From a candidate division FCPU426 bacterium (GTDB lineage: Bacteria; Oederibacteriota; Muellerivitia; Muellerivitales; Muellerivitaceae), in contig CAVTWJ010000002.1 of assembly GCA_963738405.1 (NCBI GenBank), forward strand, positions 1 to 64,000: a stretch of 64,000 nt of DNA, given 5' to 3'. The notes below the pieces were generated by a model, which was given only the letters and a program-made list of their open reading frames with translations, was not told where the DNA came from and did no database searches. Shown here piece after piece: positions 3,320-37,541 of the stretch. A program made the position numbers and the translations under genes. The first letter of the stretch is position 1. The number at the start of each line of letters is the position of its first letter.

Positions 3320-3958
3320 TTATTTGTTGGGCTGGGGCGTCAGGCGAAGGTAAGGCTTCACCACCTTGTAACCCTTCGGGAAACGCTTCTTCAGTTCTTC
3401 CTCGTCCTTCAAGGCTGGAACAATCACCACATCGTCCCCCTGCTTCCAATTCACCGGGGTGGCCACCTTGTAGTTGTCGGTCAGTTGGAGCGAGTCAATC
3501 ACCCGCAAAATCTCGTCGAAATTGCGGCCCGTGCTGGCCGGGTAGGTAATCGTGGCGCGGATTTTTTTATCGCCGTCGATGATGAAAACCGACCGCACCG
3601 TTGCGTTGGCCAGTGAATTGGGGTGGATCAGGTCGTACAACAGCGAAACCTTGTGGTCGTAATCCGCCAGAATGGGAAAATTAACCTGGGTGTTCTGGGT
3701 TTCGTTGATTTCCGGTATCCACCCCTTGTGGTTTTCCACCGAATCCACCGAAAGGGCGATGGCCTTCACGCCCCTCTTTTCAAATTCACCCTTCAATTTG
3801 GAAGTGGCCCCCAATTCAGTGGTGCAAACCGGGGTAAAATCCGCCGGGTGCGAAAAAAACACCACCCAGCTTTTACCCGCCCACTCATGAAAGTGAATCT
3901 TCCCTTCGCTTGAATCCTGCTCAAAATCCGGCGCGACGTCTCCTAATCGTAGTGACAT
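3320..3958 (-). CDS. 1-Cys peroxiredoxin (Prx6/LsfA type)
   Basis: FSHPADFTPVCTTE, YPASTGRNFDE and ATPVNWK motifs; start reassigned to MSLRLGD at 3958, which follows a GGGAGG RBS. Confidence 0.93.
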   Translation of the reverse strand: MSLRLGDVAPDFEQDSSEGKIHFHEWAGKSWVVFFSHPADFTPVCTTELGATSKLKGEFEKRGVKAIALSVDSVENHKGWIPEINETQNTQVNFPILADYDHKVSLLYDLIHPNSLANATVRSVFIIDGDKKIRATITYPASTGRNFDEILRVIDSLQLTDNYKVATPVNWKQGDDVVIVPALKDEEELKKRFPKGYKVVKPYLRLTPQPNK

Positions 3959-3996
3959 GACCTGCCTCCCCATTTTTAGATACGGCCCCGTAAAAC

Positions 3997-4033
3997 AAAA
4001 AACCCGAGTCCGCTTTTTTGGCGGCTCGGGTTT
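3997..4033 (-). terminator. Intrinsic terminator of riboswitch 2 expression platform
   Basis: Minus strand CCCGAGCCGC-CAAAAAA-GCGGACUCGGG-UUUUUU. Confidence 0.8.
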
Positions 4034-4054
4034 CCGGATGATGGAAATCATTTG

Positions 4055-4200
4055 CCGCTTTAGCCCCCAGTTCAGCCGACCTCCAGAAAAAAACCTAGAG
4101 AGCCAACACGGCCGGGGCAAGTTGGTCAAAAACCCTTTATTTCTAAGCGTTTTTGAAGGTTTCCCTTGTTCAGGAAAACCACCAGTTAAAGCCTCGCCGT
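4055..4200 (-). ncRNA. SAM-II-like riboswitch aptamer, copy 2, with long hairpin insertions in L1 and L3
   Basis: Minus strand ACGGCGAGG-CUUUAA-[~60 nt, two hairpins]-CCAACUUGC-CCCGGCCGU...GAACUGGGG-GCUAAAGCGG. Confidence 0.68.
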
Positions 4201-8318: not shown

Positions 8319-8921
8319 TTATGAAACCTCAAATAGAATCCGGAGCCTCGTTTTGGAATCGATGGGAACATTGTCCTTGGCCGCTGGCTTGAATTGCCAT
8401 TTGGAAGCAGTTTTCAAAGCGATGGCGTCCAATTCATCGTTGCCGCTGGAATCCAAAAGCCGAGGGGTCACCCCCCCCTGGGCCGTGATGAGGAATTCAA
8501 TGACCACGTTGGTTTTCAGGTTTTGGTCCCGCAAATAGACGGGAATGACCGGTGCCGGAGCGTAAAAGGCTACGGGCCCATGGGTGGGCCCCAGGGCCGG
8601 TCCCGCGTCCACCTGATTTTGCTGCTCGGGGGCTTTAGGCGGTTCCTTTTTCTCCACTTTCTTCCTGGGGCTTTGCTTATGGCTGAAAACCACCTCATCC
8701 TCGTCCTTCACGGCGGTAGCGCCGGTCAAATGGGCGTTGGCGGGCAATTGGATGATCTGGGCCTCAATATAATCAGTCGAATCAAACGGATTTTTAAAAA
8801 GAGATAGATGCCCTAATCCCAATGCGAGAAAGAAGAGAAGTTCCAATCCCGCCGCGATCAAAGCGGCCTTCCAAATTCGCTCTTGACCTTCTTCAAGGTC
8901 GTAAATTCCGGGATTCGTCAT
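8319..8921 (-). CDS. tonB: Energy transducer TonB
   Basis: N-terminal TM helix, Lys/Pro linker, TonB_C-like domain (SSGNDELDAIA...WQFKPA); follows exbBD. Confidence 0.85.
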   Translation of the reverse strand: MTNPGIYDLEEGQERIWKAALIAAGLELLFFLALGLGHLSLFKNPFDSTDYIEAQIIQLPANAHLTGATAVKDEDEVVFSHKQSPRKKVEKKEPPKAPEQQNQVDAGPALGPTHGPVAFYAPAPVIPVYLRDQNLKTNVVIEFLITAQGGVTPRLLDSSGNDELDAIALKTASKWQFKPAAKDNVPIDSKTRLRILFEVS

Positions 8922-9331
8922 TACTTGTCCTTCCCCGCTTCGGCCACGAGCGCAAATTTCCTTACCCCCACCTCTTTCGCCTTGTCCATGGCCGAAACCA
9001 CCAGCCCATAACCCACGCCCTCATCGGCGTTCACAATCACCACCGCCTGGGGGTCGGCCTGCATCTGGTAGGTCAATTGGCTTCCCAGCGTGTCGAGGGT
9101 TACCGCCGTCTTGTTGACCATCAGCGATCCGTCTTTCTTGACAGTCAGGATGATGTTTTGCTTCATGGTTTCGGGTTTTCCCGACATCTTGGGCAATACC
9201 ACCTTAACGCTGTTGATGCGGGTCATGGCCAGGGACGAAACCATGAAGAACACCAACAGAAAAAAGATTACGTCGATCATGGGAATAATCTCGATGCGGA
9301 CCCTTTTGAGGGGCCTTTGGCGTATTTGCAT
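8921..9331 (-). CDS. exbD: Biopolymer transport protein ExbD
   Basis: IEIIPMIDVIFFLLVFFMV motif; start reassigned to MQIRQR after GGAGG. Confidence 0.92.
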   Translation of the reverse strand: MQIRQRPLKRVRIEIIPMIDVIFFLLVFFMVSSLAMTRINSVKVVLPKMSGKPETMKQNIILTVKKDGSLMVNKTAVTLDTLGSQLTYQMQADPQAVVIVNADEGVGYGLVVSAMDKAKEVGVRKFALVAEAGKDK

Positions 9332-9351
9332 CAGGACACCTCCCGGCAAAA

Positions 9352-9532
9352 TTCACCACCAAGGCACCGAGACACCAAGGGAAATAAAGATTTATTGATT
9401 TTAACCGCCCCCCTCAAGAGGTCACTTTTTGAGTTATTAAGCATTCGGAGTGAATAAACATTTTTGGGTTTGTGTTGTTTAATCCAAGTTTGCCTTTCGG
9501 TGTTCTTGGTGTCTTGGTGCCTTGGTGGTGAA
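9352..9532. mobile_element. MITE-like element, copy D, between exbB and exbD
   Basis: ttcaccaccaaggcaccgagacaccaag ... cttggtgtcttggtgccttggtggtgaa; core differs from copies A and B. Confidence 0.72.
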
Positions 9533-9548
9533 AATTCAGGTTTTCGCA

Positions 9549-10184
9549 TTAGCCTTTTTTCCTTTCGGAGGCCATGCGGGCTTCCATCAGCCGGGAGGCG
9601 GCGGATTCCATCTCATATAGGAAGTTCTTAATCAGGGTGTTGAAGTAATTGTGGGCGATCACGCAAACCAGCGCGATGACGAGGCCCGTGGCGGTGGCGA
9701 TCAGGGCTTCGGCGATACCCCCGGTAATGGAATAGGGGTCGTCCACCCCGCTTTGGGTGAGGACCTTAAAGGAGCCCATCATGCCGATGATGGTGCCCAA
9801 CAGCCCCATCAGGGGCGCGATGGTGATGGTGGTATCGAGGATATGCACATATTTTTCAAGCCGAGGAACCCAGCTTTCCCCCGCGTTCTTCATGGCGATT
9901 TCCATTTCCGCCGCCGAATTCTTGAAATGCTCCAGCCCGGCCTTCAGCACCACGGCCACGGGGATCATCTTTCCCTCGCAGAGTTTTAATCCCTCCTTCA
10001 GTTCGCCTTGGCGGGCCATGTCCAGAACCTTTTGAATGAAGCCATGAGGCGTTACGTACTCTTGATGAAAAGCTTTCCACCGCTCGACGATCACCGTCAG
10101 GGCGATCAGCGAGGATAAAAGAAGCGGGATCATCATGAACCCGCCGTGAAATAGGAATTTGAATCCGTCGAATAAACCGTTCAT
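9549..10184 (-). CDS. exbB: MotA/TolQ/ExbB proton channel protein
   Basis: APLMGLLGTIIGM and GGIAEALIATATGL motifs. Confidence 0.92.
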   Translation of the reverse strand: MNGLFDGFKFLFHGGFMMIPLLLSSLIALTVIVERWKAFHQEYVTPHGFIQKVLDMARQGELKEGLKLCEGKMIPVAVVLKAGLEHFKNSAAEMEIAMKNAGESWVPRLEKYVHILDTTITIAPLMGLLGTIIGMMGSFKVLTQSGVDDPYSITGGIAEALIATATGLVIALVCVIAHNYFNTLIKNFLYEMESAASRLMEARMASERKKG

Positions 10185-10292
10185 TCCATCTTCCTTTCAA
10201 TATTTGAAATAATATCGGCATAACGCCAGTTGGTTCCTGAATTCCAGCTGGCGTTTGCCATGACGCGTTTGCGATCTAAATCTTTACTACGG

Positions 10293-12670
10293 TTAAATCT
10301 CCTTCGACAAACGGAAAATAATCTGGCGGCCCGCCTCGAAGTGGTTGCCGTTGAATCCGTTGGCGATGAAAATCGTGTAGGGGTTGTCGAATAGGTTCAG
10401 CACGTCCAAGCTGGCCTTGAGCCCCTGGAGCCCGCTTTCCTTCTTAAAGGCGTAGCCCACCGTGGCATCCATCGTGAAATGCGATGGAAGCCTCAAAGAG
10501 TTGTTGTCCCCCGTGCTCAAACCCCCGCCGAAGAGCCCCTCCGCCGTAATCCAAAGGTCCCCCGGGTTATAGGTCAGCCCCCCGTTGACGGTATGGATTT
10601 GGCAATGATCCAGAAATTGGTAATCACTGGACCCGTAGGCGGCTCCCGGTATGGCGAAGATGCCCCCCGCCAATCCCTCGCCCTTGGCGATTTCGTAGGA
10701 ATAATTCGCGAAATCCGACCATTGGCTGTCGATCTTGCCGTTGACGGTCACTTCCACACCGTATGCATAGCCCTTCTCAAAGTTATAGGGTTGGGCGATG
10801 GCGGTATTCAAAAGCTGGGTTTCATCCAGCATATCGACCGCGTCCTTGTAATAGCCCGTGAGGGTGAACAGATGGTCTCCCGCCTGTTGGCTGATCCCCG
10901 CCTCGTAGTAATCATCCTTTTCGGCCTTGATGTCATAGGGCGTCAATTGCCCTTGGCCAAGGTTGTTGAAGGTATCCCGCAGGTTCTCGGCGGGCGCGGG
11001 CATGAAAAGCTTGCCGTAGAAGAAATGGATCTTGGTCTCCTCGGTGGGAAGGATATTCAACCCCACGCGCGGCTCCACCAGGCTGTCGTTGGACGTGGTA
11101 TCGGGAAAGACGAACTGGGTAGCGTCCACCCTCACGCCCGCGTTCAGGACCAGCCACTTGGCCAGGGTCAAGTCATCCTGCAGGTAAACCCCTTCCTGGT
11201 AGCCGTTGTCCGTGGAATCGTCCTCACTCGTGGTCGTGACCGGACTGCCGCCCGTGGAATCGACGAAGACCACGTTCACGGGGCCGAAGGACTGGGTCCA
11301 GACGGCCTGGACACCGGCCTTGATCAGGTTGTTGTCGTCGGCGCGCAGGGTGTAGTCCGCCTGAATGCCCAAATTGTTGCTGGTGCGGTCCTCGGAAAAG
11401 GAATCCCCCGTCGTCTGGAAAAGGGTGGTCGCCATCAAGTCGTCGGCCAGGTCGTTGGTGAAGACCACGTTGGACTGCTTCCAATAGGGGGCGATTTGAA
11501 GGAACGAATTGTCCCCAAAGGCGTGTTTCCAGGCGAATTCCACGTACTTGTTGGATTCGCTTTGGGTGTCGTTGGTGCCGTTGGGCACGTAATTGAACGG
11601 CCCGTTGCCGTAGGGGTCGGTGTAGGTGTTGAAGAAGGGGCTGTCGGGGCCGAACGAGGAAGGATAGTTCGGGATCTGATAGAACTTGTTCTCACTGAAC
11701 CCGATCAAGGCCAGTTTATTCGTGTTGTCGGCCACCCAATCGAACTTCACGAACTGGTTGGAACCGTAACTCTGGTCGTGAACCGCCTCCGAGCCTCCTT
11801 GGGAATCGTCCGTCGGAACCGCCGGGTTGGGCGTGTCCAATCCCCGGTCGGTGTAGGTATTGCTGGTCGAGAGGAAATAGTGGAAATCCCCCGAGGCGTC
11901 CGACCCGCCGTAATTGGCGAAAGGGGTGAGCTGGTTGTAGGAACCGTAGCTCAAACCGATATTCCCGCCCGGAGTCGTGGTCCCCGACTTGGTGACGATA
12001 TTCACCACCCCGGCCAGGCGCGTCCCGAATTCCGAGGGCAGGCCCCCGGTGAGGACGTCCATGTGGTCGATGTTGGCCGTGGCGAAAGCCTCCCCGAAGG
12101 AGCCTCCCGTGGAATCGGGCAGCTGGATGCCGTCGATCTGGTACTGCAAATTGGCGTGGTTCCCGCGGGCGAAGATCTGCCCGAAGGGGCCTTCCACCAT
12201 CCCGGCGTTGGTGGTGTAGAGCAGTTTGGGCAGGGAAGCCGTGTCCCCCCCGGAAGCTGGGCAATCTCCTCCGAATTGATGGATTTACTGCTAGAGGAGG
12301 AGTTGGTGATGAGGTGGCGCTTGGCCTTCACCGTCATTTGGATTTCACCTGCTGGTGAAAGGGTAATATCCAAAGAGGTGGAGTTTCCCGAAACCGCCAC
12401 TGTTCCCTGGTAAAGGTTGAATCCCTCGGCCTGGACGCTGACCTGGTAATCCCCGATCGTCAGGGGGAAAACCTGGTAAGTCCCGGTGGCGGAGGCCGTC
12501 AAATCCTTTTCCATTCCGTTCCCCGTGATGGTTACCTTGGCATTTGGAACCGCCACGCCCTTGTCGTCCAAAACCGTACCGGATAAAGCGCCGTCCACCG
12601 TGGCCCAAACCTTGGCCGCCGGCAGAAGGCTAAAAAACACGGCTAACAAAAACATGCATCGTTTAAACAT
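10293..12670 (-). pseudogene. TonB-dependent receptor with N-terminal carboxypeptidase-regulatory-like domain, frameshifted at a G7 tract
   Basis: ORF 12002..12670 gives the signal peptide, CarboxypepD_reg-like domain and plug start; ORF 10293..12200 gives the rest of the plug and barrel; one extra G at 12245-12251 joins them. Confidence 0.85.
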
Positions 12671-12770
12671 TGATAAGCTCCTTTAAGGTTTTCTTCGTAC
12701 TTCTTCAACATTCATTCATTGGTTGCGGGCCCTTCGTAGGGCTTGTGGACGCATCGCTTTCAAGGAATAT

Positions 12771-13052
12771 TCAACAGGGGGGACCGCGTCCCCGATGAAA
12801 GAAAAGACGGGCGAGTTCAAGGCGGTTTTCTCTAGTCGCCGCCCTGAAAACGAAAAACAGCGGAAAGAGGGCCGGCGGCGCCGGCGGGGCTACCGCCTGG
12901 GAACCCGTATGGGACCAATGGCAGTAAGCGCAATTGTCCTCGGTCTCATGGTGGTGGTGGCGGTGAAAGAAGCCCTCCCCCGTCGAGACCAGCAATAGGA
13001 CGAGCGTCATCGTTAAGGGAAGCGTCCGTTTTAAGACTATCTTGAGATTCAC
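12771..13052 (-). CDS. DUF2946/CruR-like leader protein 1 (His run, CxxC, C-terminal RGPP)
   Basis: TM segment-HRHHHHE-CAYC...RGRGPPC*; 100 nt upstream of the TonB-dependent receptor. Confidence 0.8.
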   Translation of the reverse strand: MNLKIVLKRTLPLTMTLVLLLVSTGEGFFHRHHHHETEDNCAYCHWSHTGSQAVAPPAPPALFPLFFVFRAATRENRLELARLFFHRGRGPPC

Positions 13053-13065
13053 TGATCCCCCAAAT

Positions 13066-13824
13066 TTAAAATCCGAACCAGGATTTCTTCGGCAAATCCA
13101 ATTTCTCGCAAGTCATGCGGTACAGGCACCAGCCCTGGTTGTCCTGGTCGTAATTCGTCCCCACGCCCAAGGTTCCGAAAACCGTGAGAGGGATGTCCAT
13201 GGTGGAATCAACCGTTTTTCCATCGATCATCTTGACGTAAATCCACTGGTTCAGTTTCGGGTACGCGCCATAGCAACAGGTCATTTGGTTTTGGGCGAGA
13301 ATGAAAGAAAAAACTTTCCCTTTGTCGTTCACGTCCATGGGGATCATGAACCCGGCTACCGAAACCTTTTGCCCATCCAACCCGAGGATGGAATGCGGGA
13401 CTTCGTTTTGGAATTTTTCCTTCATGGCAGACTGGTCTTTGGGTTCAGCCACCAGGTCCGGCGTCTCGGAAGGAAAACCCGCAAGCGTGTTGAAGCCCAC
13501 CTGATAAAAACCGTCTTTTTGGGCGAAAGGCGGTTTCCAGGCGGGGGGGCCTTGCGGGGCCGAGGCGCTGGACAGGCTCGCCGGCTGTTCGGTTTCAATT
13601 CGGGTGGTCTCCCGCGCGGTTTGACTCTTCCAGTACTGGTTCATGTTGGGCGCGTTGTTCGCCCTCCAAAGGACATAGGTCAACAAGCCGAACCAGACCA
13701 CGCTGCAGGACAACATGAACCAGTATTTCCAATCCCTGGGCGGTATGACGGATTCATATTTGATTTTATTTTTTTTCCCCCCGGGCCAGAGACGGGGGAG
13801 GTCCTTCACCGTTTTCGTGTCCAT
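13066..13824 (-). CDS. DUF3299-like protein, paralog 1
   Basis: LDGQKVSVAGFMIPMD...FIL...TCCYG..P..NQWIYV. Confidence 0.8.
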   Translation of the reverse strand: MDTKTVKDLPRLWPGGKKNKIKYESVIPPRDWKYWFMLSCSVVWFGLLTYVLWRANNAPNMNQYWKSQTARETTRIETEQPASLSSASAPQGPPAWKPPFAQKDGFYQVGFNTLAGFPSETPDLVAEPKDQSAMKEKFQNEVPHSILGLDGQKVSVAGFMIPMDVNDKGKVFSFILAQNQMTCCYGAYPKLNQWIYVKMIDGKTVDSTMDIPLTVFGTLGVGTNYDQDNQGWCLYRMTCEKLDLPKKSWFGF

Positions 13825-13825
13825 C

Positions 13826-14440
13826 TCACCAATCCGCCTTTGGAATGACGACCTTATCCGAGACCATCCGGTAAAGGCTCCATCCCGTGTCCTCTTTCTT
13901 TTGCTCCCCCACCGAAAGGGTTCCGAAAACGGTGATGGGAATATCCATCATCACCTCGGCGGTTTTGCCCTTTTCCATCTCCACGAACATCCATTCGTTC
14001 ATTTTGGGAGTGATGCCGTAGCAGCAGGAGGCCTGGGTCCGGGCGAGAATGAAGGAAGTGGCCTTCTGGTCCGCATCGTCCGTGTCCAGGGGAATCATGA
14101 ACCCCACCACCGCGACGCTCACGCCGTCCAATTTTTTGACGAAATCGGGAATGGGAAACTTTTTCTTCTTGAGCCTGATATGGGGGTCGATCTCCTCCTC
14201 AATCTCAGGGGCGTCATAATCGAAATGAGCCAAGGTATTCCATGTCACATAGGGGTGGTTTTCGACCATGGAAAAAACGGTGGCCGGGGCGGACTTCAAG
14301 TCAATGGGCTTGATGGGCAGGGGATACCCATCTGCCGACGGTTGGTTTTGCCCTTGGATTTTACTCATGGAAAGCATCATTCCGAAGGCCAGGAGTATGG
14401 CCACACGGATGCCCCAGCCCTTCATTAATTCTTTATTCAT
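13826..14440 (-). CDS. DUF3299-like protein, paralog 2
   Basis: LDGVSVAVVGFMIPLD...ASCCYGITPKMNEW. Confidence 0.8.
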   Translation of the reverse strand: MNKELMKGWGIRVAILLAFGMMLSMSKIQGQNQPSADGYPLPIKPIDLKSAPATVFSMVENHPYVTWNTLAHFDYDAPEIEEEIDPHIRLKKKKFPIPDFVKKLDGVSVAVVGFMIPLDTDDADQKATSFILARTQASCCYGITPKMNEWMFVEMEKGKTAEVMMDIPITVFGTLSVGEQKKEDTGWSLYRMVSDKVVIPKADW

Positions 14441-14480
14441 TGCTTTGCCCCCTTTTCACGGAAAGACCTTTCGCTGTTTT

Positions 14481-15134
14481 TTATTTCATCCACTGATTTG
14501 CATTTTTGAGAAAAGCCACTTTGTCCGAAACCATCCGGTAAAGGCTCCATTGGCTTGTGTGTTTTTCGCCCACGGACAAAACCCCAAATACCGTGACCGG
14601 GACATCCATGACGGCATCCGCTGTTTTGCCCTCGTCCATTTGAACGAAGATCCATTCGTTCATCCTGGGTGCGATGCCAAAGCAGCAGGTCATTTGGCTT
14701 CGGATCAACATAAAGGAAGCGGCCTTTCCGCCGTCCGTGTCCAAATCCACCGGGATCATGAACCCCACAACCGCCACGCTGACCCCGTTCAATTTTTTCA
14801 CCGCTTCCGGTATGGGGTATTTATCCTTCTTCCGTAAATCGGGGTCATTCTCTTCGTCCTTTCCGGGAACGTCATAAGGGAACCGGGCCAAAGTGGCCCA
14901 AGTCACGAAGGGATGGTCCTCCACCTGGGCATACATCGACCCCGAATCCGACTGGGAATCGTCAATGGTTACGACGCTGCACGGAGTGGCCGTGGTTTTT
15001 CCGTAATCGATCTCAACCTCCGCTCCCGGTAGAATTGAAATCAGGATCGTGGAGAAAAAAACGGCCCCCCCAATAATGAATATTCCCCTTTTCACGCGCG
15101 GATCATCCAAGAAACCGCCTTGCCCATAAACCAT
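14481..15134 (-). CDS. DUF3299-like protein, paralog 3
   Basis: LNGVSVAVVGFMIPVD...TCCFGIAPRMNEW. Confidence 0.8.
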   Translation of the reverse strand: MVYGQGGFLDDPRVKRGIFIIGGAVFFSTILISILPGAEVEIDYGKTTATPCSVVTIDDSQSDSGSMYAQVEDHPFVTWATLARFPYDVPGKDEENDPDLRKKDKYPIPEAVKKLNGVSVAVVGFMIPVDLDTDGGKAASFMLIRSQMTCCFGIAPRMNEWIFVQMDEGKTADAVMDVPVTVFGVLSVGEKHTSQWSLYRMVSDKVAFLKNANQWMK

Positions 15135-15226
15135 GCCGAAAGAAGTCCGCAGAAGGCCGGAATCATTTCAATGGCCAAATCTTTTAGAATCCGGCCTTTC
15201 TGCGGCAAATACAAAGCGGCCACCCT

Positions 15227-15709
15227 TTACTTGACCCAATCCGGTTTTTTCACGCCTTCATTCCCTTCCGGATACAAAAACCAGACGTTTTTAAAATTCG
15301 TTCCCCTGGCATTGATACGAACGAACTCCCCTTGAAACCGGGCGGTTCCCTTGAGCTTGGGGGAGATGATCTGGTATTGGGAAGTGTCGCCGACCGTTTC
15401 ACCGGTCAACGCGTTAGCGATGGGCTTCAACTTGAGGGCCCAATCTTTCCCTTGGCCCTTCACCAGGATTTGAAGGGAAGACTGGGAAATCCTCACCGGG
15501 TTTTCCGCTTCCCCATCCAACACGAACGCGTCCAGTTCCCCGGTAGAAGGGTCGAGCAAAAGCTCCACGTGGGAAAATTCCTCACCCAACACCACCAATG
15601 TTCCATGGTGCGGAGGATGGTGCTCGTGGGCTGAAACCGGACCCGCCATGAACATCAACAGCGAGATCACCAACGAAGCGATTGAGGCCATTTCGATTAT
15701 TTTTTTCAT
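15227..15709 (-). CDS. Secreted His-rich putative metal-binding protein
   Basis: Signal peptide ending VSA, followed by HEHHPPHHG...HVEL. Confidence 0.7.
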   Translation of the reverse strand: MKKIIEMASIASLVISLLMFMAGPVSAHEHHPPHHGTLVVLGEEFSHVELLLDPSTGELDAFVLDGEAENPVRISQSSLQILVKGQGKDWALKLKPIANALTGETVGDTSQYQIISPKLKGTARFQGEFVRINARGTNFKNVWFLYPEGNEGVKKPDWVK

Positions 15710-15737
15710 TTTTAATTCTCCTTTTTTTATTGGGTGA

Positions 15738-17012
15738 TTAAGACAAGGGGTCCAAATTACGGGCTACGTCGGTGGAATAGGCCTTGAGGGCGGGGACCAA
15801 CCCCGATAAAGCCCCCAAAACCGTCATGCAAACAGGGACAAATAATAGGGAAATATGGAACTGGAACACTTCCAGCACCACGCCGGTTTGTTCGCGCACC
15901 ACCAGAGCGGCCACCGCAAAGAGGGCCAGGTAAATCACATAACCCACGAGCGATCCCAGTCCTGCGATAGCGGTAGCCTCCAGCACGATGGCGGAAAAGA
16001 CCGTGGTCCGCCTGGCGCCCAGAGACCTTAGAATCGCGAATTCCCTTCGCCTTTCGTTCAGCGTGTTGTACAGGCTGGAGAGGATGGAAGCGGCGGCCAC
16101 CAGCATTACCAGGTAGGCCACCAGGGTGAGGATCTTCGTCACCCAACCCATCTTGTCGAAAAGCTCGGCCATCACCTTGCCGATGGGCCAGGCCAGGGTC
16201 GCCACCTTGCCCTGTCGGTTGATGGTCTGGTCCAGCATGAAGCCCGCCTGTGGGCTGTAAAACTTCAGCATGACGGCGGAAACTTCCTTGTTGGCGTCGG
16301 GTATTTCCACGCCCTCTTTGGCCGTATATTCCGTTCCCGTTCCGCGCAGCACATGGCCCTTCATGCGGTAGACGTCGTCGATCGGGATCCACAAAACCCG
16401 GTCCGAGGGTGTATTGGTGGGCTTCAAGACCCCCACGATCTGGAAAACTTCCTCATGCTGCATGTTGGGGTCAAAATAAAGCCCGTGGAAAGGCTTGAAG
16501 GTGGACCCCACCCCGAGCCCCAGCTTGCGGGCCACGAAGCTTCCGATGACCGCTTCCTTTTTCGCGGGGTCAAAGACACGCCCCCCCGGCTCGACTTCCA
16601 GGTGCTTGTCCTTTTGGTACTCAAAGCGGGTGAAGATGTCATTGGTCGTGCCGACAATGCGGTAGCCGTAATAGTTATCCCCCACCGCATAGGGAACGGC
16701 CAATTCGACTCGAGGGTCGTTTTTGACCTCTTCGTAAAGCGTCCAGGGTATGTTGCCCGGTGAGGTTTCCAGTTGGTAGACAGCGTTCAACACCAACTGC
16801 AACTGGCTACCCCTCGCTCCCAGGACGGCGTCATATCCCACACGCCCTCCCGTAAAAGCCCCACGGGTTTGGTACTGAATGGAAAAGACCGCCATGGTCA
16901 ATCCAGTCGCCAGCCCCACCGACATCACCGTGATGACTGTGGAGAGGGCATGCTGTTTCATGCTTCGCTTGACCAGAAAAAACAGGTTCTTCAGGTTTTC
17001 CAGGGGGCTCAT
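15738..17012 (-). CDS. ABC transporter permease (MacB/FtsX type; ZrgC/PA4065-like)
   Basis: GARGSQLQLVLNAVY, GDNYYGYRIVGT and LNERRREFAILRSLGA; start reassigned to MSPLEN. Confidence 0.88.
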   Translation of the reverse strand: MSPLENLKNLFFLVKRSMKQHALSTVITVMSVGLATGLTMAVFSIQYQTRGAFTGGRVGYDAVLGARGSQLQLVLNAVYQLETSPGNIPWTLYEEVKNDPRVELAVPYAVGDNYYGYRIVGTTNDIFTRFEYQKDKHLEVEPGGRVFDPAKKEAVIGSFVARKLGLGVGSTFKPFHGLYFDPNMQHEEVFQIVGVLKPTNTPSDRVLWIPIDDVYRMKGHVLRGTGTEYTAKEGVEIPDANKEVSAVMLKFYSPQAGFMLDQTINRQGKVATLAWPIGKVMAELFDKMGWVTKILTLVAYLVMLVAAASILSSLYNTLNERRREFAILRSLGARRTTVFSAIVLEATAIAGLGSLVGYVIYLALFAVAALVVREQTGVVLEVFQFHISLLFVPVCMTVLGALSGLVPALKAYSTDVARNLDPLS

Positions 17013-17704
17013 ACGGTCACCCCCTTCTTGGCGGCCGATTCCACGGCCCGGTTGATGCGGCTCAGATTTTCCACCTTCTCGAACTTGGACAAGACTTCCT
17101 TGTCGTGGCTGACCAAAAGAAGCGCCGCCCCATTCTCCTTGCAAATTTCCCGGATCAAGGCGAGGGATTCCATGGCCCTCACGTGGTCCAGGTGGCCCGT
17201 GGGTTCGTCGGCCAGGACTAGCTGGGGATGGTTGGCCAGCGCCCGGGCCACGGCAACCCTTTGCTGTTGGCCTACCGACATCTGCCGGGGAAGATAGTGG
17301 AGGCGCTTTTCCAACCCCACCCGTTTGAGAAGGTCCCGCGCGTAGGATTCATTCACGCCCCTTCCGAACATCATTCCCAACATCACGTTTTCCAGGGCCG
17401 TATAGCCTTGGAGCAAGTTGAAGGTTTGGAAAATGTAGCCCAGGCTTTGGGCCCGAAGCATATCCCTCCGGCTTTCCGGAAGGGATTCCAATTCCTTGCC
17501 CGCGAGGCGGATGCTTCCCTCGTCGGCTTTCAAGATTCCCGCGATGAGGTTCAAGAAGGTGGTTTTTCCCGAACCGCTTTCACCCGCCATGGCCAACTGC
17601 TCGCCCTGGCCGAGCGCGAAAAAATTCACATGAACCACCAACTGACTGCCGCCTTCCGGAGACGGATAAGTCTTTTTTAAGTTTTTTATTTCAAGAACTT
17701 TCAT
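17009..17704 (-). CDS. ABC transporter ATP-binding protein (LolD-like)
   Basis: Walker A GESGSGKT, signature MSVGQQQR, LADEPTG. Confidence 0.93.
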   Translation of the reverse strand: MKVLEIKNLKKTYPSPEGGSQLVVHVNFFALGQGEQLAMAGESGSGKTTFLNLIAGILKADEGSIRLAGKELESLPESRRDMLRAQSLGYIFQTFNLLQGYTALENVMLGMMFGRGVNESYARDLLKRVGLEKRLHYLPRQMSVGQQQRVAVARALANHPQLVLADEPTGHLDHVRAMESLALIREICKENGAALLLVSHDKEVLSKFEKVENLSRINRAVESAAKKGVTV

Positions 17705-17888
17705 TTTTTCCTCGTAATCTTCCAATGGTTAAATTAGGAATAATCGAAATCAATTCATGAAGAGCTTTGGTCCAAACGGGGAAAGAAAATGAAAAGGGGT
17801 TGGAAAACTTGAAATGAATGGAACTGTGCCTGAGGTGCGGTTAATTAAAGCCGGACCCGTCCCCTATTCATTTGTTTCCCGTTTGAAG

Positions 17889-18182
17889 CTAGGAAAGAAC
17901 GGCTGGAGGGGCGCGGCCCGTGGGCAGAATGAAGCGGAAACTGCGGTAGGGCTGGCAAAAAACGAGCCCCGCGAAAAACAAGAAGAAAAGCGGGGCCAAA
18001 TCCACCAGGGGGGCGGTGGAAAAATCCGAACTGCTGAAGGCCTTATGAAAACTGCAGTACGCGCAATCCGCGTCTTCCGTCTTTTCATGGTGGTGGTGGA
18101 TATACCCTTCGGATAATTCCACCCCGGCGAAGGCCAGGAAGACCGCGAATGCGATGAATTGTAACCACTGGCGCGAACGCAT
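17889..18182 (-). CDS. DUF2946/CruR-like leader protein 2 (His run, CxxC, RAPP)
   Basis: TM segment-IHHHHEK-DCAYC...PTGRAPPAVLS*; upstream of the ABC operon. Confidence 0.8.
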   Translation of the reverse strand: MRSRQWLQFIAFAVFLAFAGVELSEGYIHHHHEKTEDADCAYCSFHKAFSSSDFSTAPLVDLAPLFFLFFAGLVFCQPYRSFRFILPTGRAPPAVLS

Positions 18183-18297
18183 CAAATCTCCCTTGATTTG
18201 CGACTGCCCGTTATCATCCAAGCGGTGCCAGGAAATGTCAATTGCAGGGGGCGAAATAATAATAACCGGATGATGTAGATGTCTATTATTGCGCTTC

Positions 18298-19671
18298 CTA
18301 TTGGGAGGCGCCGGTTTTCAACTCGAACTGAACGGGTTCGACGGGCAGGTCTTCCGGCGAAAAGGTAAATTGAACCGTGAGATCCCCCCCCTTCGCCGGG
18401 GTGAAAGTTAAATCAGGGCAATTGTCCCACCCTTGAAAAGTGTCCTTTCCAAATAGTTGGAGTTCGCCCCTGTCCTTTGGCCATCGGCCGTATTTAATCC
18501 GGAATTCCTGGATAACGTCTGTCAAATCCTGAACCAGCGTCTCCCGAATCTCCTGTTCAAATCCGGTGTACCCCTCCACCGGGTCATCGGGTATATCCGG
18601 GGCGACGTTGAAGTCAACCCTTGTCATGGGAATCACAAACCTGTCGAAGAAAGTGACCCGGCAGACATTCCCTTGGTTTGGCCCGACGGTAAGGTGGGGA
18701 TAGAGGCTCAAGTCGAAATTCCATTTGTTTTTCGCGATATAGGCTCTGAGCTCGGCAACCCCTGAGGGCCAGTGAGAGCAATGGGTATAGAAGTCCTGAA
18801 GGAGGCTGCTCATCGGTCCGGACAGGATGAAATGGAGGTTATTTTTTCCATCCAGGGCCCATTGGCGCAAACCATTATTTCCTGTTTTTTTCGACAAGAG
18901 GTCCAGTTTTTCAACCGCGATCCGAAAAAACTCGTTAATCCCTTCCGTTCTGCCGCTTTCTCGAAAATAGCTTTCCAGCCAGGAGCAATCAACAATGATG
19001 TCCACGGAGCGGGCCTTGCTATATTGCCAACCCTGGAGTTTATCCATTTCATTTTTGATGAGTTTTTTCCAGAAGTTCGGGAAGCGCAGTTCATCATATT
19101 CAAACCGCTGTTTTTCCTTATTCCAGACGAAGATGGAAGGCGCGTCGTAATTCTTGCTTCCCCGGTTGTAAAAAACCATCTCCCGGGTCCCGTCCCCGCG
19201 GAGGTCCACGAACGAGGGGGCCTCCCCCGCCGAGCCGGAGGAACCGTCAAAAACGATTCGGGGTTTCAGCCCATCCCACATCAGGAGTTTATACGCGGTG
19301 TAATCTCCCATAGGGGAATCGAAATAGGAATATCCGAAAACGGGCGGCAAATCATCGCGGAAGGTGCCGACAATGACCGGCTCGGGCTTGTTGAGCCTGC
19401 TCCAGACCAACCGGGAATCCGAATCCACCATAAACAAATCGGCGACCCGGTCCGATCCCTTGTCCAAATGAACCGCGTAGAGGGTCAGGGCCTTGCCATC
19501 CGCGTTCAGGCCGGACGGATATTTTTTGATACTTGTGATTTTCATTGTGGAATCGATCAAGGCCGAAATGGGCGAGGGGATGTTTTCGCCGGAAGAGGGT
19601 GTTTGGGCTGTCAGCCCGGGGGCCAAACCTGAAATAAACAAGAAAACCCAACCGACGTGCAAAGTTCTCAT
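18298..19671 (-). CDS. Secreted hypothetical protein (457 aa)
   Basis: Signal peptide; DLRGDGTREMV resembles an FG-GAP/Ca-binding loop; two weak internal repeats (WPS..ELRAY / WPK..ELQLF). Confidence 0.7.
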   Translation of the reverse strand: MRTLHVGWVFLFISGLAPGLTAQTPSSGENIPSPISALIDSTMKITSIKKYPSGLNADGKALTLYAVHLDKGSDRVADLFMVDSDSRLVWSRLNKPEPVIVGTFRDDLPPVFGYSYFDSPMGDYTAYKLLMWDGLKPRIVFDGSSGSAGEAPSFVDLRGDGTREMVFYNRGSKNYDAPSIFVWNKEKQRFEYDELRFPNFWKKLIKNEMDKLQGWQYSKARSVDIIVDCSWLESYFRESGRTEGINEFFRIAVEKLDLLSKKTGNNGLRQWALDGKNNLHFILSGPMSSLLQDFYTHCSHWPSGVAELRAYIAKNKWNFDLSLYPHLTVGPNQGNVCRVTFFDRFVIPMTRVDFNVAPDIPDDPVEGYTGFEQEIRETLVQDLTDVIQEFRIKYGRWPKDRGELQLFGKDTFQGWDNCPDLTFTPAKGGDLTVQFTFSPEDLPVEPVQFELKTGASQ

Positions 19672-19754
19672 GGTGCGCCTCGCGCATGAATATTGAATCC
19701 AACATCCATTCTTTGCCGACCTCAGTACAAAACCGGTTCAGATCAAAACACAAT

Positions 19755-20273
19755 CTATGGCGCAAAATTCTCCTTGAGGTGTTCCTGCTGTTCCTGCTGC
19801 CGCCGACGAAAGGCCTGGCATTGGGGGCAATTGCAGCCATTTTTGAAATACCATTCGAAGGTTTTGAGGGGTTTCTTTTTTTTCAAGGCCGGTTGGGTGA
19901 CAGCTCCGGACGAAACACCATCCTGGGGATTCATGGACATGGCATCGGACGCCGATAAGGCCGGTGTGCTTGAAAGGGCAGGTTTGGGGGCCTTATCCGC
20001 CGTCACCTGGGCCTGGACCGGGAGGACAAACCCAATCGCCAAGGCCAAGATCAGGAATGGGGCGGCGGCGGTGCATTGTAAAGCGCGTTGAACCTGCGGA
20101 TGGGCATGACCATGAGGGTTTTTCCCGACTTCCATTCGCAGGATTCCACTGTTTTTCCGTCGTTCGTCGCGAAAAGGATCCATTTTCCATTTCCCTCCAC
20201 CCTTATGAATTGGCTCGGCTGTTTTTTCTTCCACATTAATTTCCCGCGGCTGCTCAAAACGGAAAAACTGCAT
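19755..20273 (-). CDS. Small secreted hypothetical protein with CNCPQC (true start uncertain, probably near 20050-20090)
   Basis: Signal-like LILALAIGFVLPVQAQ, then CNCPQC; the 5' part of the listed ORF overlaps the upstream gene. Confidence 0.45.
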   Translation of the reverse strand: MQFFRFEQPREINVEEKTAEPIHKGGGKWKMDPFRDERRKNSGILRMEVGKNPHGHAHPQVQRALQCTAAAPFLILALAIGFVLPVQAQVTADKAPKPALSSTPALSASDAMSMNPQDGVSSGAVTQPALKKKKPLKTFEWYFKNGCNCPQCQAFRRRQQEQQEHLKENFAP

Positions 20274-20836
20274 TGCGAAGACCCCACGGACAGGTTCCGA
20301 ACCAGGATCATCGCATCATCATCCGATATGGCCGCTATCGATCCTTGGCCAATCCCAAACTCGTGTTTTTCCCAGCCATCGACATCGAAAATCCGGACCA
20401 AACCGTCGTCAAGGGCCGCCTTCCCGTCCCCAGGGGTGAAAGCGATGTACCTTCCCCCATTCGAGACGACAAGGGATTTCCCTTTTTGGGTCAAGATTCT
20501 TTGGCCCCCGCGGTCATAACCCCTGATTTCCCCGTCCGACAACTCAAAAAACGACCGGCCATTCCCCTGGCTGACGGCGGCATGTAGAACCAAATAGGAC
20601 GTGTTTTTCGACCATTGCGTTTTTCCTTCCTTCAGGAAAATCAGGGAGGTTTTCACCGCCTGATCTGGCAAAGCCGGGTGTTCGGTCTGTATTTGAATGT
20701 CATAAAGCCTTGGGGCCGTCATCGGCTTTTTAAAGATTTGGGCTTGCCCCTCGATCGGACCCATAAAAATTCCAAGAGCTAACATAAGCCACCCAAGCCT
20801 TTTGACCATGGCCTTATCCGGGTTCAGGGTGGCCAT
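20051..20836 (-). CDS. Secreted hypothetical protein
   Basis: Signal peptide; beta-rich segments (VSNGGRYIAF, AISDDDAMIL) suggest a partial propeller. Confidence 0.6.
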   Translation of the reverse strand: MATLNPDKAMVKRLGWLMLALGIFMGPIEGQAQIFKKPMTAPRLYDIQIQTEHPALPDQAVKTSLIFLKEGKTQWSKNTSYLVLHAAVSQGNGRSFFELSDGEIRGYDRGGQRILTQKGKSLVVSNGGRYIAFTPGDGKAALDDGLVRIFDVDGWEKHEFGIGQGSIAAISDDDAMILVRNLSVGSSQCSFSVLSSRGKLMWKKKQPSQFIRVEGNGKWILFATNDGKTVESCEWKSGKTLMVMPIRRFNALYNAPPPPHS

Positions 20837-21224
20837 GATCCCTGCAATGCTGGCAAAGCCTAAGGTTCACCATATGCCCCGCGGCCAAACCCAACGCGCC
20901 GGGCACCGCCATCCACAAACCCGGAACGCCGCCGATCAAAAGTTTTCCCGCCACGATCATCCCCGTACAAAGGTAAAGGACCAGCATCAGATGAATTTTT
21001 CGGTGGAAATGGAAACCATAGCTATAACTGAGCGTGGCCAAAAATATGGACCCGGCGATGAAAAAAAGCTCGATTTTCCGGTCATACAGGAAAGTCGCCC
21101 CCAACCAGGGCAATAGGACCAGTAAAAGCGGGAAAACAACGCAATGGATAGCGCATGTAAAGGACATGAGTGCGCCGATCCTGTCCAGATAGGGGGTTGG
21201 AAGCGTTTGCCATTTATGAACCAT
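20814..21224 (-). CDS. MerC-domain membrane protein
   Basis: LDRIGALMSFTCAIHC, GFHFHR and GHMVNLRLC; four TM segments. Confidence 0.85.
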   Translation of the reverse strand: MVHKWQTLPTPYLDRIGALMSFTCAIHCVVFPLLLVLLPWLGATFLYDRKIELFFIAGSIFLATLSYSYGFHFHRKIHLMLVLYLCTGMIVAGKLLIGGVPGLWMAVPGALGLAAGHMVNLRLCQHCRDHGHPEPG

Positions 21225-21384
21225 GTGGATGTAACCTCAAATCGTCATTACCTCAGATGATGAATAATCTTGGAGTGAACGGAACGGAAAGAAGGGGGAA
21301 AAGCGGGAAACCTAATGGTTTGATAGGACTACGGACGAAACCTAAAAGGCACCGGCGCCTTCCGCCCCATTCCCGTTAATGAAT

Positions 21385-21678
21385 TTAAGAAAAAATCGCG
21401 GGGGGAGCCCGGCCGGAATGGGCCGAGAAGGCCACCGGCTTGAAAGAAGGGTGGAAAACGGCAAGGGTGAACAACAGCAGAAACACCGGCACCAGGTTGG
21501 GGCAGGCGTTCGGAAGGTCGGTTTGGGAAGCGTGGTTATAGTAACTGCAAAAGGCGCAGTCCTGCTCCTCGCTCTCGCTGTGGTGATGGTGGTGCAGGAA
21601 CCCGTGGGCGGAACCCGCGAGGCCGAAAACCATCATCATGGCCAGCGCTAAAATTCTCATCCTGCTCTTGGTAGGCAA
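21385..21678 (-). CDS. DUF2946/CruR-like leader protein 3 (His run, CxxC, RAPP)
   Basis: Signal/TM segment-LHHHHHSES-DCAFC...HSGRAPPAIFS*; upstream of the MerC-like gene. Confidence 0.8.
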   Translation of the reverse strand: MPTKSRMRILALAMMMVFGLAGSAHGFLHHHHHSESEEQDCAFCSYYNHASQTDLPNACPNLVPVFLLLFTLAVFHPSFKPVAFSAHSGRAPPAIFS

Positions 21679-21794
21679 CGAAGGCTCCCGTTGTTGATGA
21701 AACTAGGGTTCATCATGCCGATACCCTCTAAAAAATGTCAATAAGGCGCCTATGCTGTAGAGGTCCAGCAACGGTCATACCAAATCTTCGACTC

Positions 21795-32569: not shown

Positions 32570-32770
32570 TTAAACAGCTTTATTTTGCATCTTCCTCAAC
32601 AACATTTCCAACGGGCAAAAGCCCGTGAAAGACGACTGCAAAAGATTCAAGCCCACGAACAGGGTGAAATAAAGCCAGTTGTGGGAATGAACCTGATAAA
32701 GCACGAGACTAAGCAGGATGAAACTCCCCGCGAATGCCCGAACCTGGGAATCAATCGACATCTTTTTCAT
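32570..32770 (-). CDS. DUF2892/YgaP-like membrane protein
   Basis: VRAFAG...FVGLNLLQSSFTGFCP. Confidence 0.85.
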   Translation of the reverse strand: MKKMSIDSQVRAFAGSFILLSLVLYQVHSHNWLYFTLFVGLNLLQSSFTGFCPLEMLLRKMQNKAV

Positions 32771-35700: not shown

Positions 35701-35943
35701 CAGGCCCCAGACCGCCCTCTCGATGGGCTCGGTGACCTTGCGTTCCACCTCGTCCGCCTCAAAGCCCGGCGCCGCCACCTGGATGTCGATCATGGGGACG
35801 GAGATCTGGGGTTCTTCCTCCTTGGGGGTCAGCCACACGGCCAGAACCCCGAGCACGATGCTCATGACCGCGATGACCGGCGTTAATTTGGAATGGACGA
35901 AGGCCTCGGCCAATGCCCCGGCGAAGCCCCTGTTCGCTTTCAT
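32767..35943 (-). CDS. RND efflux permease (AcrB/AcrD/AcrF family)
   Basis: PKEEEPQI, GILVDDAIVVVENI, RNSIILVDF and LRFRPMLLT; start reassigned to MKANRG. Confidence 0.93.
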   Translation of the reverse strand: MKANRGFAGALAEAFVHSKLTPVIAVMSIVLGVLAVWLTPKEEEPQISVPMIDIQVAAPGFEADEVERKVTEPIERAVWGLDGVEYVYSASQPHGSLVTVRFKVGEPMEPSLVKVHHKLLSIRQQLPENASAPMVKSYSIDDVPFLTLTFSSKSRDDFALRTLVAPLARELSSTPDLSRVELLGGQKRAIRVIVDPKRLVEQGVSLPDVAQALRANDAYAPAGKTWGDSQVYDVEVGARITSAKAIETIPVGQRGGAQVRIRDIAKVVDGPEERVRASVLLDKEKGGDPETAVSIVFAKRKGTNVVELSSQLLQRAKTFAAQLPPDVNLSVMRDYGATAGEKSKELIEHLLLATLSVCVLIALVMGGRSALVVATAIPVTLALTLAVYYFMGYTLNRVTLFALIFSIGILVDDAIVVVENIERYLQTDPKKGILKATLEAVAEVGNPTILATFTVIAAILPMAFVRGLMGPYMKPIPVGASMAMLFSLLVAFIVTPWASVRLLKNYGKEHAKEPTRGIPLKAIYQATMNRLLTDKKAAIGMGLAVGLLLLASCSLFAFKAVRVKMLPFDNKNEFQVLLDYPPTTPLNQSLTWSQELASQILKDPNVKRIQVFTGEAAPYSFSGMVKHTFLRGSDYQADLQIVLTDKGERKQSSHEIIQSLRPVILSFGQSKGAVTKVIEIPPGPPVLATMMAEVYGPDAKTRRQVAEEVYRDFASEESVVDLDSTWRLGRPRVVYGFDQIKGGQLGLNAAQVMSAGRLIFFESPMGTLNGASSPEDVSVDLSVDQGVRSGSNPFRDEMMGSYVSGTARLENVIQKPVTMEDATLYRKNLKPVAYVMSELAGKDEAPVYGILKLSPKIPYEQQTAEVPWDTQKPVVKWDGEWFITYEVFRDLGGAYGVVVLLIYVLVLGWFRSYAVPLIIMAPIPLSLIGILPGHWLTGSYFTATSMIGFIAGAGIIVRNSIILVDFTERQLARGIPLKAAVMSAGVLRFRPMLLTAEAVVVGSSVMLMDPIFQGLALSLIFGEVAATLLSPLAVPVLYYWFVGPAREKYIQEHKEMAR

Positions 35944-36001
35944 GTTTTTTTCTTGGTTCAAATCGGGTCGTTTCTCCATGTCTCTGTGCCTCTGTGGTGG
36001 A

Positions 36002-37318: not shown

Positions 37319-37345
37319 GTTAGACTCCTTATTTTTCTTGTTCGA

Positions 37346-37501: not shown

Positions 37502-37519
37502 CACCACCTCCATAACAAA

Positions 37520-37541
37520 ATTAGATTTTCCTAATATAGAT
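37520..37541. promoter_or_regulatory. Putative ArsR operator 2
   Basis: ATTAG-attttc-CTAATATAGAT, matching the operator upstream of the arsR gene. Confidence 0.7.

Follow-up and report, generated by a model that had tools for sequence, protein, structure and literature searches.

Three short open reading frames (ORFs), designated W1, W2 and W3, lie on the minus strand of a 64,000-nucleotide stretch from a candidate division FCPU426 bacterium (GenBank assembly GCA_963738405.1, contig CAVTWJ010000002.1, positions 1 to 64,000). This whole stretch is referred to as the window. Each ORF precedes a module of transport-type genes and carries a His run, a CxxC motif and an R(A/G)PP sequence just before its stop. 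In this study, we propose that W1, W2 and W3 encode arrest-peptide leaders that sense metal, are translated and act in cis, and that they form a divergent part of the CruR/CutF (DUF2946-like) family, a reading to which we give a probability of about 0.6.

Three leader ORFs share one pattern and are under selection

A first reading of the letters alone (the sequence-only reading) had placed three His/CxxC/RAPP ORFs at 12771, 17889 and 21385. Their coordinates and shared motifs were borne out, and all are on the minus strand. The leaders are as follows.

12771-13052, minus strand: leader W1; 93 amino acids (aa), GTG start, ending GRGPPC; DUF2946 score 20.3 bits; HRHHHH at residues 30-35, CAYC at 41-44, GRGPP at 88-92 (RGPP 89-92), 1-codon tail.
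17889-18182, minus strand: leader W2; 97 aa from ATG, ending GRAPPAVLS; DUF2946 score 20.7 bits; HHHH at residues 29-32, CAYC at 40-43, GRAPP at 89-93 (RAPP 90-93), 4-codon tail AVLS.
21385-21678, minus strand: leader W3; 97 aa, TTG start, ending GRAPPAIFS; DUF2946 score 23.5 bits (E 1e-4); HHHHH at residues 29-33, CAFC at 41-44, hydrophobic helix at 63-74, GRAPP at 89-93 (RAPP 90-93), 4-codon tail.

The ATG of W2 has GGGAG 5 nt upstream, and the ORF listing extends W2 to a TTG at 18221, giving 110 aa. The TTG start of W3 has GGGAG 6 nt upstream. The order of parts is the same in all three leaders: a basic and then hydrophobic N-terminus, E/H-G-(F/Y)-x with four to five His residues, an acidic stretch, CA(Y/F)C, a second hydrophobic stretch, and GR(A/G)PP 1-4 codons before the stop. 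Read from the sequence by eye, the N-terminus comprises basic residues, 13-16 hydrophobic residues and a small-x-small site. CxxC and R are separated by 44 (W1), 46 (W2) and 45 (W3) residues. Pairwise identity is 34-37%, with 20 invariant columns.

We counted the pattern CxxC, 42-48 residues, R(A/G/S/D)PP and 0-8 residues to the stop in stop-to-stop ORFs of at least 60 aa. It was found in 3 of the 499 window ORFs, which are W1, W2 and W3, against a mean of 0.006 in 500 residue shuffles, and chance is therefore excluded. One scan of species-representative genomes gave 82 matches to the pattern, two of which were confirmed as related loci (L001 and L002). A hidden Markov model (HMM) of the family picked out only W1, W2 and W3 in the window, with no fourth copy there, and 7 of the 1,265 ORFs in the window and the two related loci together. 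The ratio of nonsynonymous to synonymous substitution rates (dN/dS) was 0.20 between W3 and the first leader of L001 (L001a) and 0.21 between W2 and W3. In the other six leader pairs the synonymous sites were saturated, and the proportion of nonsynonymous differences (pN) was 0.24-0.49. These results indicate that the three frames are under protein-level purifying selection, and translation is therefore very likely.

Relation to the DUF2946 family

The sequence-only reading had also pointed to DUF2946 and CruR, and its proposed HMM check gave a divided result. All three leaders matched Pfam PF11162 (DUF2946; E 1e-4 to 1e-3), and the alignments extended to the RAPP end, at the final profile position (117 of 117). 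The three scores listed above nevertheless stay under the gathering score of 23.7 bits. The W3 orthologue in L001 (54-57% identical) scored 23.9 bits, above the cut-off; with this score, the matches through to the RAPP end and the published hallmarks described below, the lead to DUF2946 and CruR holds. No match for the leaders was found in NCBIfam, while a look-alike cluster in the Atlas carried DUF2946 on 54% of its members.

A word-based protein search returned five proteins, with the window's own counted in. An exhaustive profile search of 1.84 billion representatives at E<=1e-3 returned 64, from which one 672-aa repeat protein was dropped as spurious, leaving 63 relatives. CxxC was present in 61 of the 63 and a His run in 47. 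They ended in RAPP (27), RSPP (24), RGPP (4), RDPP (3), the same motifs with an extra Pro (3) or the motif without Arg (2). The distance from the first Cys to the Arg was 48-49 residues in 49 of the 61 CxxC-bearing relatives, and the tail was 3-4 residues long in 35 of 63. W3 was 53-86% identical to relatives elsewhere, W2 46-54% and W1 65%, closer than the window paralogs are to one another, which indicates that the three leader lineages are old. The W2 tail AVLS is kept in its three closest relatives (48-54% identical). The PF11162 cut-off was reached by only 1 of the 63 relatives, and E<=0.01 by 27, so this His-plus-Cys clade is largely invisible to routine annotation. The low Pfam scores of the window leaders and of these relatives count against family membership.

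Such conserved proteins might instead be mature transport components, namely membrane-anchored or periplasmic metallochaperones that act in trans and whose RAPP-like end has no regulatory role. The AF2 model of W3 (pLDDT 78.8; helices at 3-28, 35-38, 42-50 and 63-74) is a two-helix hairpin with a 35-residue His/Cys loop, as in a small membrane metal-binding protein. Purifying selection over the full leader and the one relative in L002 without Arg are also consistent with a chaperone. However, 61 of the 63 relatives retain the Arg, and its distance from CxxC varies by only a few residues, as expected of a ruler to the ribosome and not of a chaperone. RGPP and RAPP are reported as the most avoided tetrapeptides in bacterial proteomes (PMC12992588), and CruR and CutF are described as undetectable as mature proteins and acting only in cis (PMC9426467, PMC9973294). 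We consider a chaperone role very improbable, and the leaders are treated below as arrest-peptide leaders.

Comparison with CruR, CutF and other arrest peptides

The hallmarks given for CruR are an export signal, CXXC, 45 intervening residues, RAPP near the C-terminus, first place in a metal operon and a long intergenic region (PMC9426467). The window leaders resemble CruR (Bp2923 of Bordetella pertussis) in a putative export signal, in CXXC, in the 45 residues that follow (44-46 here) and in RAPP 3 residues from the end (1-4 here). CruR also stands before a TonB-dependent transporter, with an intergenic distance of 162 nt (100-184 here), and, as here, its excess of C over G extends from the 3' part of the ORF into the spacer. 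In contrast, CruR has 145 aa and the window leaders 93-97. The leaders described here have a conserved E-G-(F/Y)-x-HHH(H) before CxxC, which is not among the described hallmarks of DUF2946. They occur in three copies within 9 kb, one of them operon-internal, their targets add a MacB-type ABC/DUF3299 set and a MerC-like gene, and a large hairpin follows the stop.

It has been reported that CruR arrests in the PURE system with the third and fourth codons of the motif in the P and A sites, and that R139A abolishes the arrest (PMC12992588). The same report gives RAPP and RGPP as validated robust arrest cores and RSPP and RDPP as partly permissive, and finds RAPP/RGPP upstream ORFs before TonB-dependent receptors throughout Gram-negative phyla. 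The earlier description of RAPP and RGPP as ribosome-arrest motifs thus agrees with experimental validation, including the arrest of CruR in PURE (PMC12992588).

The CutF superfamily is described as comprising 29 clusters and 5,334 proteins, whose sites are Cys, His or mixed and "not all Cu-specific" (PMC9973294). CutF of Rhodobacter capsulatus, as predicted for the window leaders, is small and exported through Sec, combines a Cys/His metal site with a proline-rich end for arrest, and acts on the next gene. Only CutF has CxxxC, a proline repeat, a multicopper oxidase downstream, Cu-induced stalling as the ON state and a short stem-loop over the ribosome-binding site (RBS), whereas masking of the RBS was supported here in 1 of 7 pairs and the spacers are long. 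The RAPP/RGPP peptides of localisation operons (ApdA, ApdP and SecM-like) have the same core near the C-terminus of a small exported upstream protein (PMC12992588). In those operons sec or yidC lies downstream and translocation force releases the arrest, whereas metal transporters follow here and a metal site lies at a fixed distance. The genes after W1, W2 and W3 are transporters and not secA, secDF or yidC, which places the leaders outside the Sec/YidC-monitoring class.

Each leader stays with its module in related loci

From about 21741 down to at least 8319, all genes lie on the minus strand. The modules behind the leaders are as follows.

8319-12670, minus strand: module 1; TonB-dependent receptor, ExbB (9549-10184), ExbD (8921-9349) and TonB (8319-8921).
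10293-12670, minus strand: TonB-dependent receptor of module 1, in two frames (12002-12670 and 10293-12200) with a frame change within 12176-12248.
13066-17725, minus strand: module 2 as a whole; ABC ATPase at 17009-17704 (or 17725), MacB_PCD and FtsX permease at 15738-17144.
15227-15709, minus strand: module 2, 160-aa exported beta-sandwich protein with a conserved HEH..H motif.
14481-15134, 13826-14440 and 13066-13824, minus strand: module 2, three DUF3299 proteins.
20814-21224, minus strand: module 3, MerC-family membrane protein (PF03203, 66.6 bits against a cut-off of 27.6).
20051-20836, minus strand: module 3, 261-aa exported protein without family match, overlapping the MerC-like gene.
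18298-19671, minus strand: 457-aa protein without family match, after module 3.

Domain scans gave the neighbours that had been named from the sequence: receptor, ExbB, ExbD and TonB (CarboxypepD_reg in the receptor N-terminus, Plug, TonB_dep_Rec, ExbB, ExbD and TonB_C), the ABC and three DUF3299 genes, and MerC. A protein search with module 2 matched PDB 4hsp (E 9.8e-7). The leaders had been placed 100-185 nt before the modules, and we measured 100 nt from W1 to the receptor ATG at 12670, 184 nt from W2 to the ABC ATG at 17704 (163 nt if the TTG at 17725 is used) and 160 nt from W3 to the MerC-like ATG at 21224. W1 starts 13 nt past the stop of the last DUF3299 gene, and no promoter-like site was found in front of it. 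W1 is therefore most simply operon-internal.

We compared the window with the two related loci. The order in L002 is leader, receptor, ExbB, ExbD, TonB, second leader, ABC, FtsX, a 163-aa protein and three DUF3299 genes; that in L001 is leader, DUF3299 fragments, a 233-aa ORF, second leader, receptor, ExbB and ExbD. The ABC/DUF3299 and receptor modules thus stand in reversed order in the window and L002, and each module retains its own leader. Since both module orders occur, each with its leader, leader and module appear to form a functional unit, and this is the best evidence obtained here. The second leader of L002 (5947-6285) has its ATG 1 nt past the TonB stop; like W1, it is operon-internal and not the first gene. 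The counterpart of the 160-aa protein is kept beside the MacB-type ABC in L002 with 41% identity.

No homology was found between the 229-aa ORF above W3 and the 233-aa ORF of L001. Over residues 144-796 the window receptor shares 86% identity with the intact receptor of L001, but over residues 1-167 only 59%. The frame change falls at the junction and may reflect a frameshift, a join in the assembly or an old point of recombination. W1 is only 31% identical to the receptor leader of L001.

The split MacB-type ABC with a DUF3299 protein of the ZrgE type recalls ZrgABCDE of Vibrio and PA4063-PA4066 of P. aeruginosa (PMC9817125, PMC11481552). Zur represses those operons through a Zur box, whereas module 2 is headed by a leader peptide. 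Module 2 also differs in having three DUF3299 proteins and the 160-aa beta-sandwich partner, for which no DUF2796 (ZrgA) or DUF2607 (ZrgD) match was found even at E<=5.

This partner has 296 homologues. Those named in their source are all called hypothetical, and none of the 120 listed has a Pfam domain. It begins with a conserved HEH..PH.G and has several invariant Glu/Asp; H28, E29, H30, H34, H47, E49, D65, E67, E69 and E104 are conserved, with no conserved Cys or Met. Its AF2 model is a beta-sandwich (pLDDT 89.5). No match was obtained in Pfam or NCBIfam, by Foldseek against PDB at E<=0.001, or by PDB sequence search below E 0.28. The clusters found in the Atlas were all unnamed and pointed only weakly to YtkA, CzcB_N and HMBD (0.76-0.80). 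The protein is a candidate for a periplasmic partner that binds metal in DUF3299/MacB-type systems.

In the MerC-family protein, the first predicted helix contains CAIHC, and the tail at the C-terminus reads CQHC..HGH. No mer partner (MerR, MerA, MerP/T) was found among the scanned window ORFs, and the MerC-like gene thus stands outside any mer operon.

Promoter-like sites, C-rich tracts and spacer structures

The sites and structures around the window leaders are as follows.

21712-21741, minus strand: promoter-like site before W3 (TTGACA, 18 nt, CATGAT; 10 of 12 matches).
18213-18241, minus strand: promoter-like site before W2 (TTGACA, 17 nt, GATGAT; 10 of 12 matches).
21283-21377, minus strand: hairpin domain of the W3 spacer, -35.7 kcal/mol; G-rich 5' arm at 21356-21377, 8 nt past the stop.
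21283-21305, minus strand: 3' arm of the W3 hairpin, inside the C-rich tract 21272-21307.
17771-17887, minus strand: hairpin domain of the W2 spacer, -33.6 kcal/mol; 5' arm at 17875-17887, 2 nt past the stop.
17771-17784, minus strand: 3' arm of the W2 hairpin, in the C-rich tract 17774-17807.
12671-12770, minus strand: W1 spacer, 100 nt, with an AAAGGAG Shine-Dalgarno sequence 7 nt before the receptor ATG.

A -35-like TTGACA lies before four leaders (window 21741 and 18241; L001 about 5930; L002 1195-1207) within a shared ATTGACA(T/A)T, and the -10-like box of the four is (C/G)AT(C/G)AT. At L002 1195-1207 the -35-like element reads as a perfect palindrome, TTGACATTGTCAA, possibly an operator bound by some DNA-binding regulator.

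The excess of C over G per 60 nt in the 3' half of the leader was +14 to +23 in five of the seven leaders and +9 and +11 in the other two. It returns in 6 of the 7 spacers. As a regulatory signal, these tracts are suggestive only.

Spacer-only folds were scored against 200 shuffles for the seven spacers (W1-W3, L001a/b and L002a/b). Five were significantly stable, with z from -2.2 to -3.0.

W3 spacer: z -2.92, 1 of 200 shuffles as stable.
W2 spacer: z -3.02, 1 of 200 shuffles as stable.
L001a spacer: z -2.66, 3 of 200 shuffles as stable.
L001b spacer: z -2.20, 2 of 200 shuffles as stable.
L002a spacer: z -2.88, 1 of 200 shuffles as stable.

In the four ABC- and MerC-type spacers the closing helix begins 1-8 nt past the stop. 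The 5' arm of this helix contains a conserved (A/G)CGGGAA box, and the C-rich tract supplies the 3' arm. The receptor-type spacers of L001 and L002 keep a different hairpin pair with some compensatory changes. Consensus folds of four and three spacers gave 4 and 15 pairs with little covariation, from sequences too few for proof. Folds of the leader end together with the spacer were not significant (z -0.6, -0.6 and -0.2). No Rfam family was matched, apart from one chance lncRNA match at E 0.64, and the leaders thus show no known riboswitch. No intrinsic terminators were found in the three window spacers.

Proposed mechanism and its polarity

The exit tunnel holds about 30-40 residues, and a ribosome protects about 12-15 nt 3' of the P site. 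By analogy with CruR, for which it was toeprinted, the ribosome would arrest on R(A/G)PP with the codon of the third residue in the P site and that of the fourth in the A site. In such an arrest, with a 92-residue nascent chain, the peptidyl-transferase centre would be separated from CxxC by 48-51 residues and from the His run by about 59-63. The His/Cys site would then have just left the exit tunnel or be located at or within the Sec translocon, with the second hydrophobic helix (63-74) still in the tunnel, and metal on this site may alter the duration of the arrest.

At low metal, arrested and queued ribosomes would cover the C-rich tract in the ORF while the C-rich tract of the spacer is locked in the hairpin. 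Rho, presumed in this host, could not load, and the module would be transcribed (ON). A ribosome arrested on the third residue would end 6-9 nt short of the stop and leave the hairpin intact, whereas a terminating ribosome would touch the hairpin base. Metal would free the arrest, and the ribosome would run to the stop by the hairpin base and leave, so that C-rich RNA becomes exposed and transcription or expression ends before the module (OFF). W1, inside the W2 operon, might be a second checkpoint that gates the receptor and TonB genes separately, with W2 and W3 having their own promoter-like sites.

We adopted this CruR logic, in which arrest is ON and metal is OFF, because the targets look like uptake systems and the end motif and spacing are those of CruR, and because the C-rich tracts and long spacers fit Rho-dependent control. 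We hold this polarity tentatively, somewhat short of an even chance.

The opposite polarity is that of CutF: the leader senses periplasmic metal while it is being exported co-translationally, the metal triggers or lengthens the arrest, an mRNA structure over the next RBS opens and the modules are ON with metal, for detoxification or export. CutF, of the same superfamily, works by metal-induced arrest (PMC9973294; bioRxiv 10.1101/2025.02.05.636593), and all three leaders have a putative Sec-like signal. In the minimum-energy and centroid folds, the last codons of W2 and W3 are paired with the Shine-Dalgarno region of the next gene. When duplexes between tail and Shine-Dalgarno region were compared with 3,000 background segments, however, only 1 of 7 pairs was below 0.05 (W2, 0.038; others 0.14-0.63), and an anti-Shine-Dalgarno tail was rejected as a general rule. 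The PA4064/65 homologues have been modelled as a MacB-type exporter (PMC11481552), which fits metal-induced expression, whereas uptake is the function of a TonB-dependent receptor with ExbBD/TonB. The leaders end in RAPP/RGPP as in CruR and not in the proline repeat of CutF, and the spacers are 100-184 nt, whereas opening of a stem-loop by a stalled ribosome is stated to need short spacers (PMC9973294). CutF-type polarity at these modules is thus unlikely.

Several observations, besides the Pfam scores, weigh against the arrest-leader reading with CruR-like polarity. The second leader of L002 ends in GLSPP, having lost the Arg, yet its module is retained; this copy may be in decay or may work differently. 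The fold of its spacer is not significant (z -0.60, 54 of 200 shuffles as stable). The W1 spacer likewise has no significant structure (z +0.28, 118 of 200 shuffles as stable) and no second C-rich tract, and the C excess of the W1 region is weaker, in the top 9% of 120-nt windows. The tracts are not unique, since a C minus G of at least 14 per 60 nt occurs in 2.3% of strand windows (55 regions), and they are partly a consequence of Pro/Leu/Phe/Ala-rich coding. The region holds no more promoter-like sites than expected by chance (7, with 8.0 +/- 3.2 in shuffles). The closing helix is conserved by sequence and not by compensatory change, so the spacer structure is not proven. Rho is only presumed in this organism, and we infer stalling, metal and polarity at W1, W2 and W3 by analogy. 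Finally, the MacB-type ABC homologue of P. aeruginosa has been argued to be an exporter (PMC11481552), in which case the expected polarity would be reversed.

Copper or another metal

CxxC is a recognised Cu-binding motif. If the signal peptide is cut after the conserved G, the mature peptide would begin X-X-His, an amino-terminal Cu(II)/Ni(II)-binding motif. The sensed metal might be copper and the locus a copper-acquisition region. All characterised family members respond to Cu, CruR and CutF through their Cys motif (PMC9426467, PMC9973294), and a DUF2946 gene showed cofitness with a copper receptor in Pseudomonas (bioRxiv 10.1101/072470). AhpC/TSA, a recurrent neighbour in cruR operons (PMC9426467), lies near the window locus (3320-4129) and in L002 (519-1133), and MerC-family proteins carry thiophilic metals.

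Other observations argue against copper. DUF3299 with a split MacB-type ABC is the arrangement of the Zur-regulated zrg and PA4063-PA4066 operons (PMC9817125, PMC11481552), and the 160-aa partner conserves His, Glu and Asp but neither Cys nor Met. The receptor had only generic TonB models among its NCBIfam matches and none to a copper-receptor model. His-only relatives were linked to Ni/Co genes by the CutF authors (PMC9973294), and DUF2946 genes appear in the Caulobacter Zur transcriptome table (PMC4176598), which we counted toward Zn/Co/Ni. Copper is possible but, at about one in three in our judgement, has the odds against it. Zinc taken singly stands level with copper, and nickel or cobalt somewhat lower; zinc, nickel or cobalt rather than copper, as the sequence-only reading had suggested, is a plausible choice.

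DNA-binding regulators

The sequence-only reading had held that arrest sensors run the region instead of a DNA-binding regulator. This part of the claim is not supported as worded. Among the 56 larger window ORFs scanned, no Fur-family or NikR domain and no Zur gene were found, and two ArsR-type genes are present in the window, 16 and 27 kb away from the locus. Metal regulators usually act from elsewhere in the genome, and the 64-kb window is part of a longer contig (at least 200 kb), so the absence of a regulator from the window says little and is no evidence for such a replacement. Leaders and Zur can coexist, since DUF2946 genes are in the Caulobacter Zur table (PMC4176598).

Other genes in the window

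A heavy-metal-efflux-like cluster at 32767-37846 comprises an ArsR-type regulator (37556-37846), an outer-membrane efflux protein, an RND pump and a 55-aa membrane ORF with a CSTGAC motif (37346-37513). Outer-membrane efflux protein (OEP) genes are the commonest published neighbour of CutF-like leaders. No DUF2946-like leader was found before the RND/OEP efflux genes or elsewhere in this cluster. A MazF/PemK-type toxin gene (51876-52220) and a 1,441-aa autotransporter (53876-58201) are unrelated to the leaders.

Meaning of the leaders for the family

That such leaders exist, that they stand before TonB-dependent receptors and that they probably extend to metals other than copper has already been published. 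New here are the largely unannotated His-plus-Cys clade, the Zrg-like and MerC-like modules, the three copies with one operon-internal, and the post-stop hairpin. No mention of a link between such leaders and Zrg-like or MerC-like modules was found in the literature searched. DUF3299, MerC, FtsX and ABC_tran are absent from the smaller supplements of PMC9973294 and PMC9426467; the larger context tables were not covered, and we do not claim that the link is unreported.

The fullest version of our proposal is that three sensors of an unannotated His-plus-Cys CruR clade would run a 17-kb one-strand uptake locus. They would respond to zinc (or nickel/cobalt) and not to copper, with different arrest strengths (a 1-codon tail after RGPP, a 4-codon tail after RAPP). 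W1 would be an internal checkpoint gating inner- and outer-membrane uptake separately, and the post-stop hairpin, as a novel RNA device, would keep a Rho-loading tract hidden until the ribosome reaches the stop. Taken as a whole, this version is doubtful.

Leaders of this kind can stand within an operon and not only at its head. Most relatives fall under the Pfam cut-off, and routine annotation therefore does not name DUF2946 in them. The three leaders offer natural comparisons in one genome, namely RAPP with RGPP, 1-codon with 4-codon tails and structured with unstructured spacers, and the Arg-less relative offers a further one. So far, only copper has been shown to act through such leader peptides, and the clade with Zrg-like ABC/DUF3299 and MerC-like modules would be a direct test of nascent-chain sensing for zinc, nickel or cobalt.

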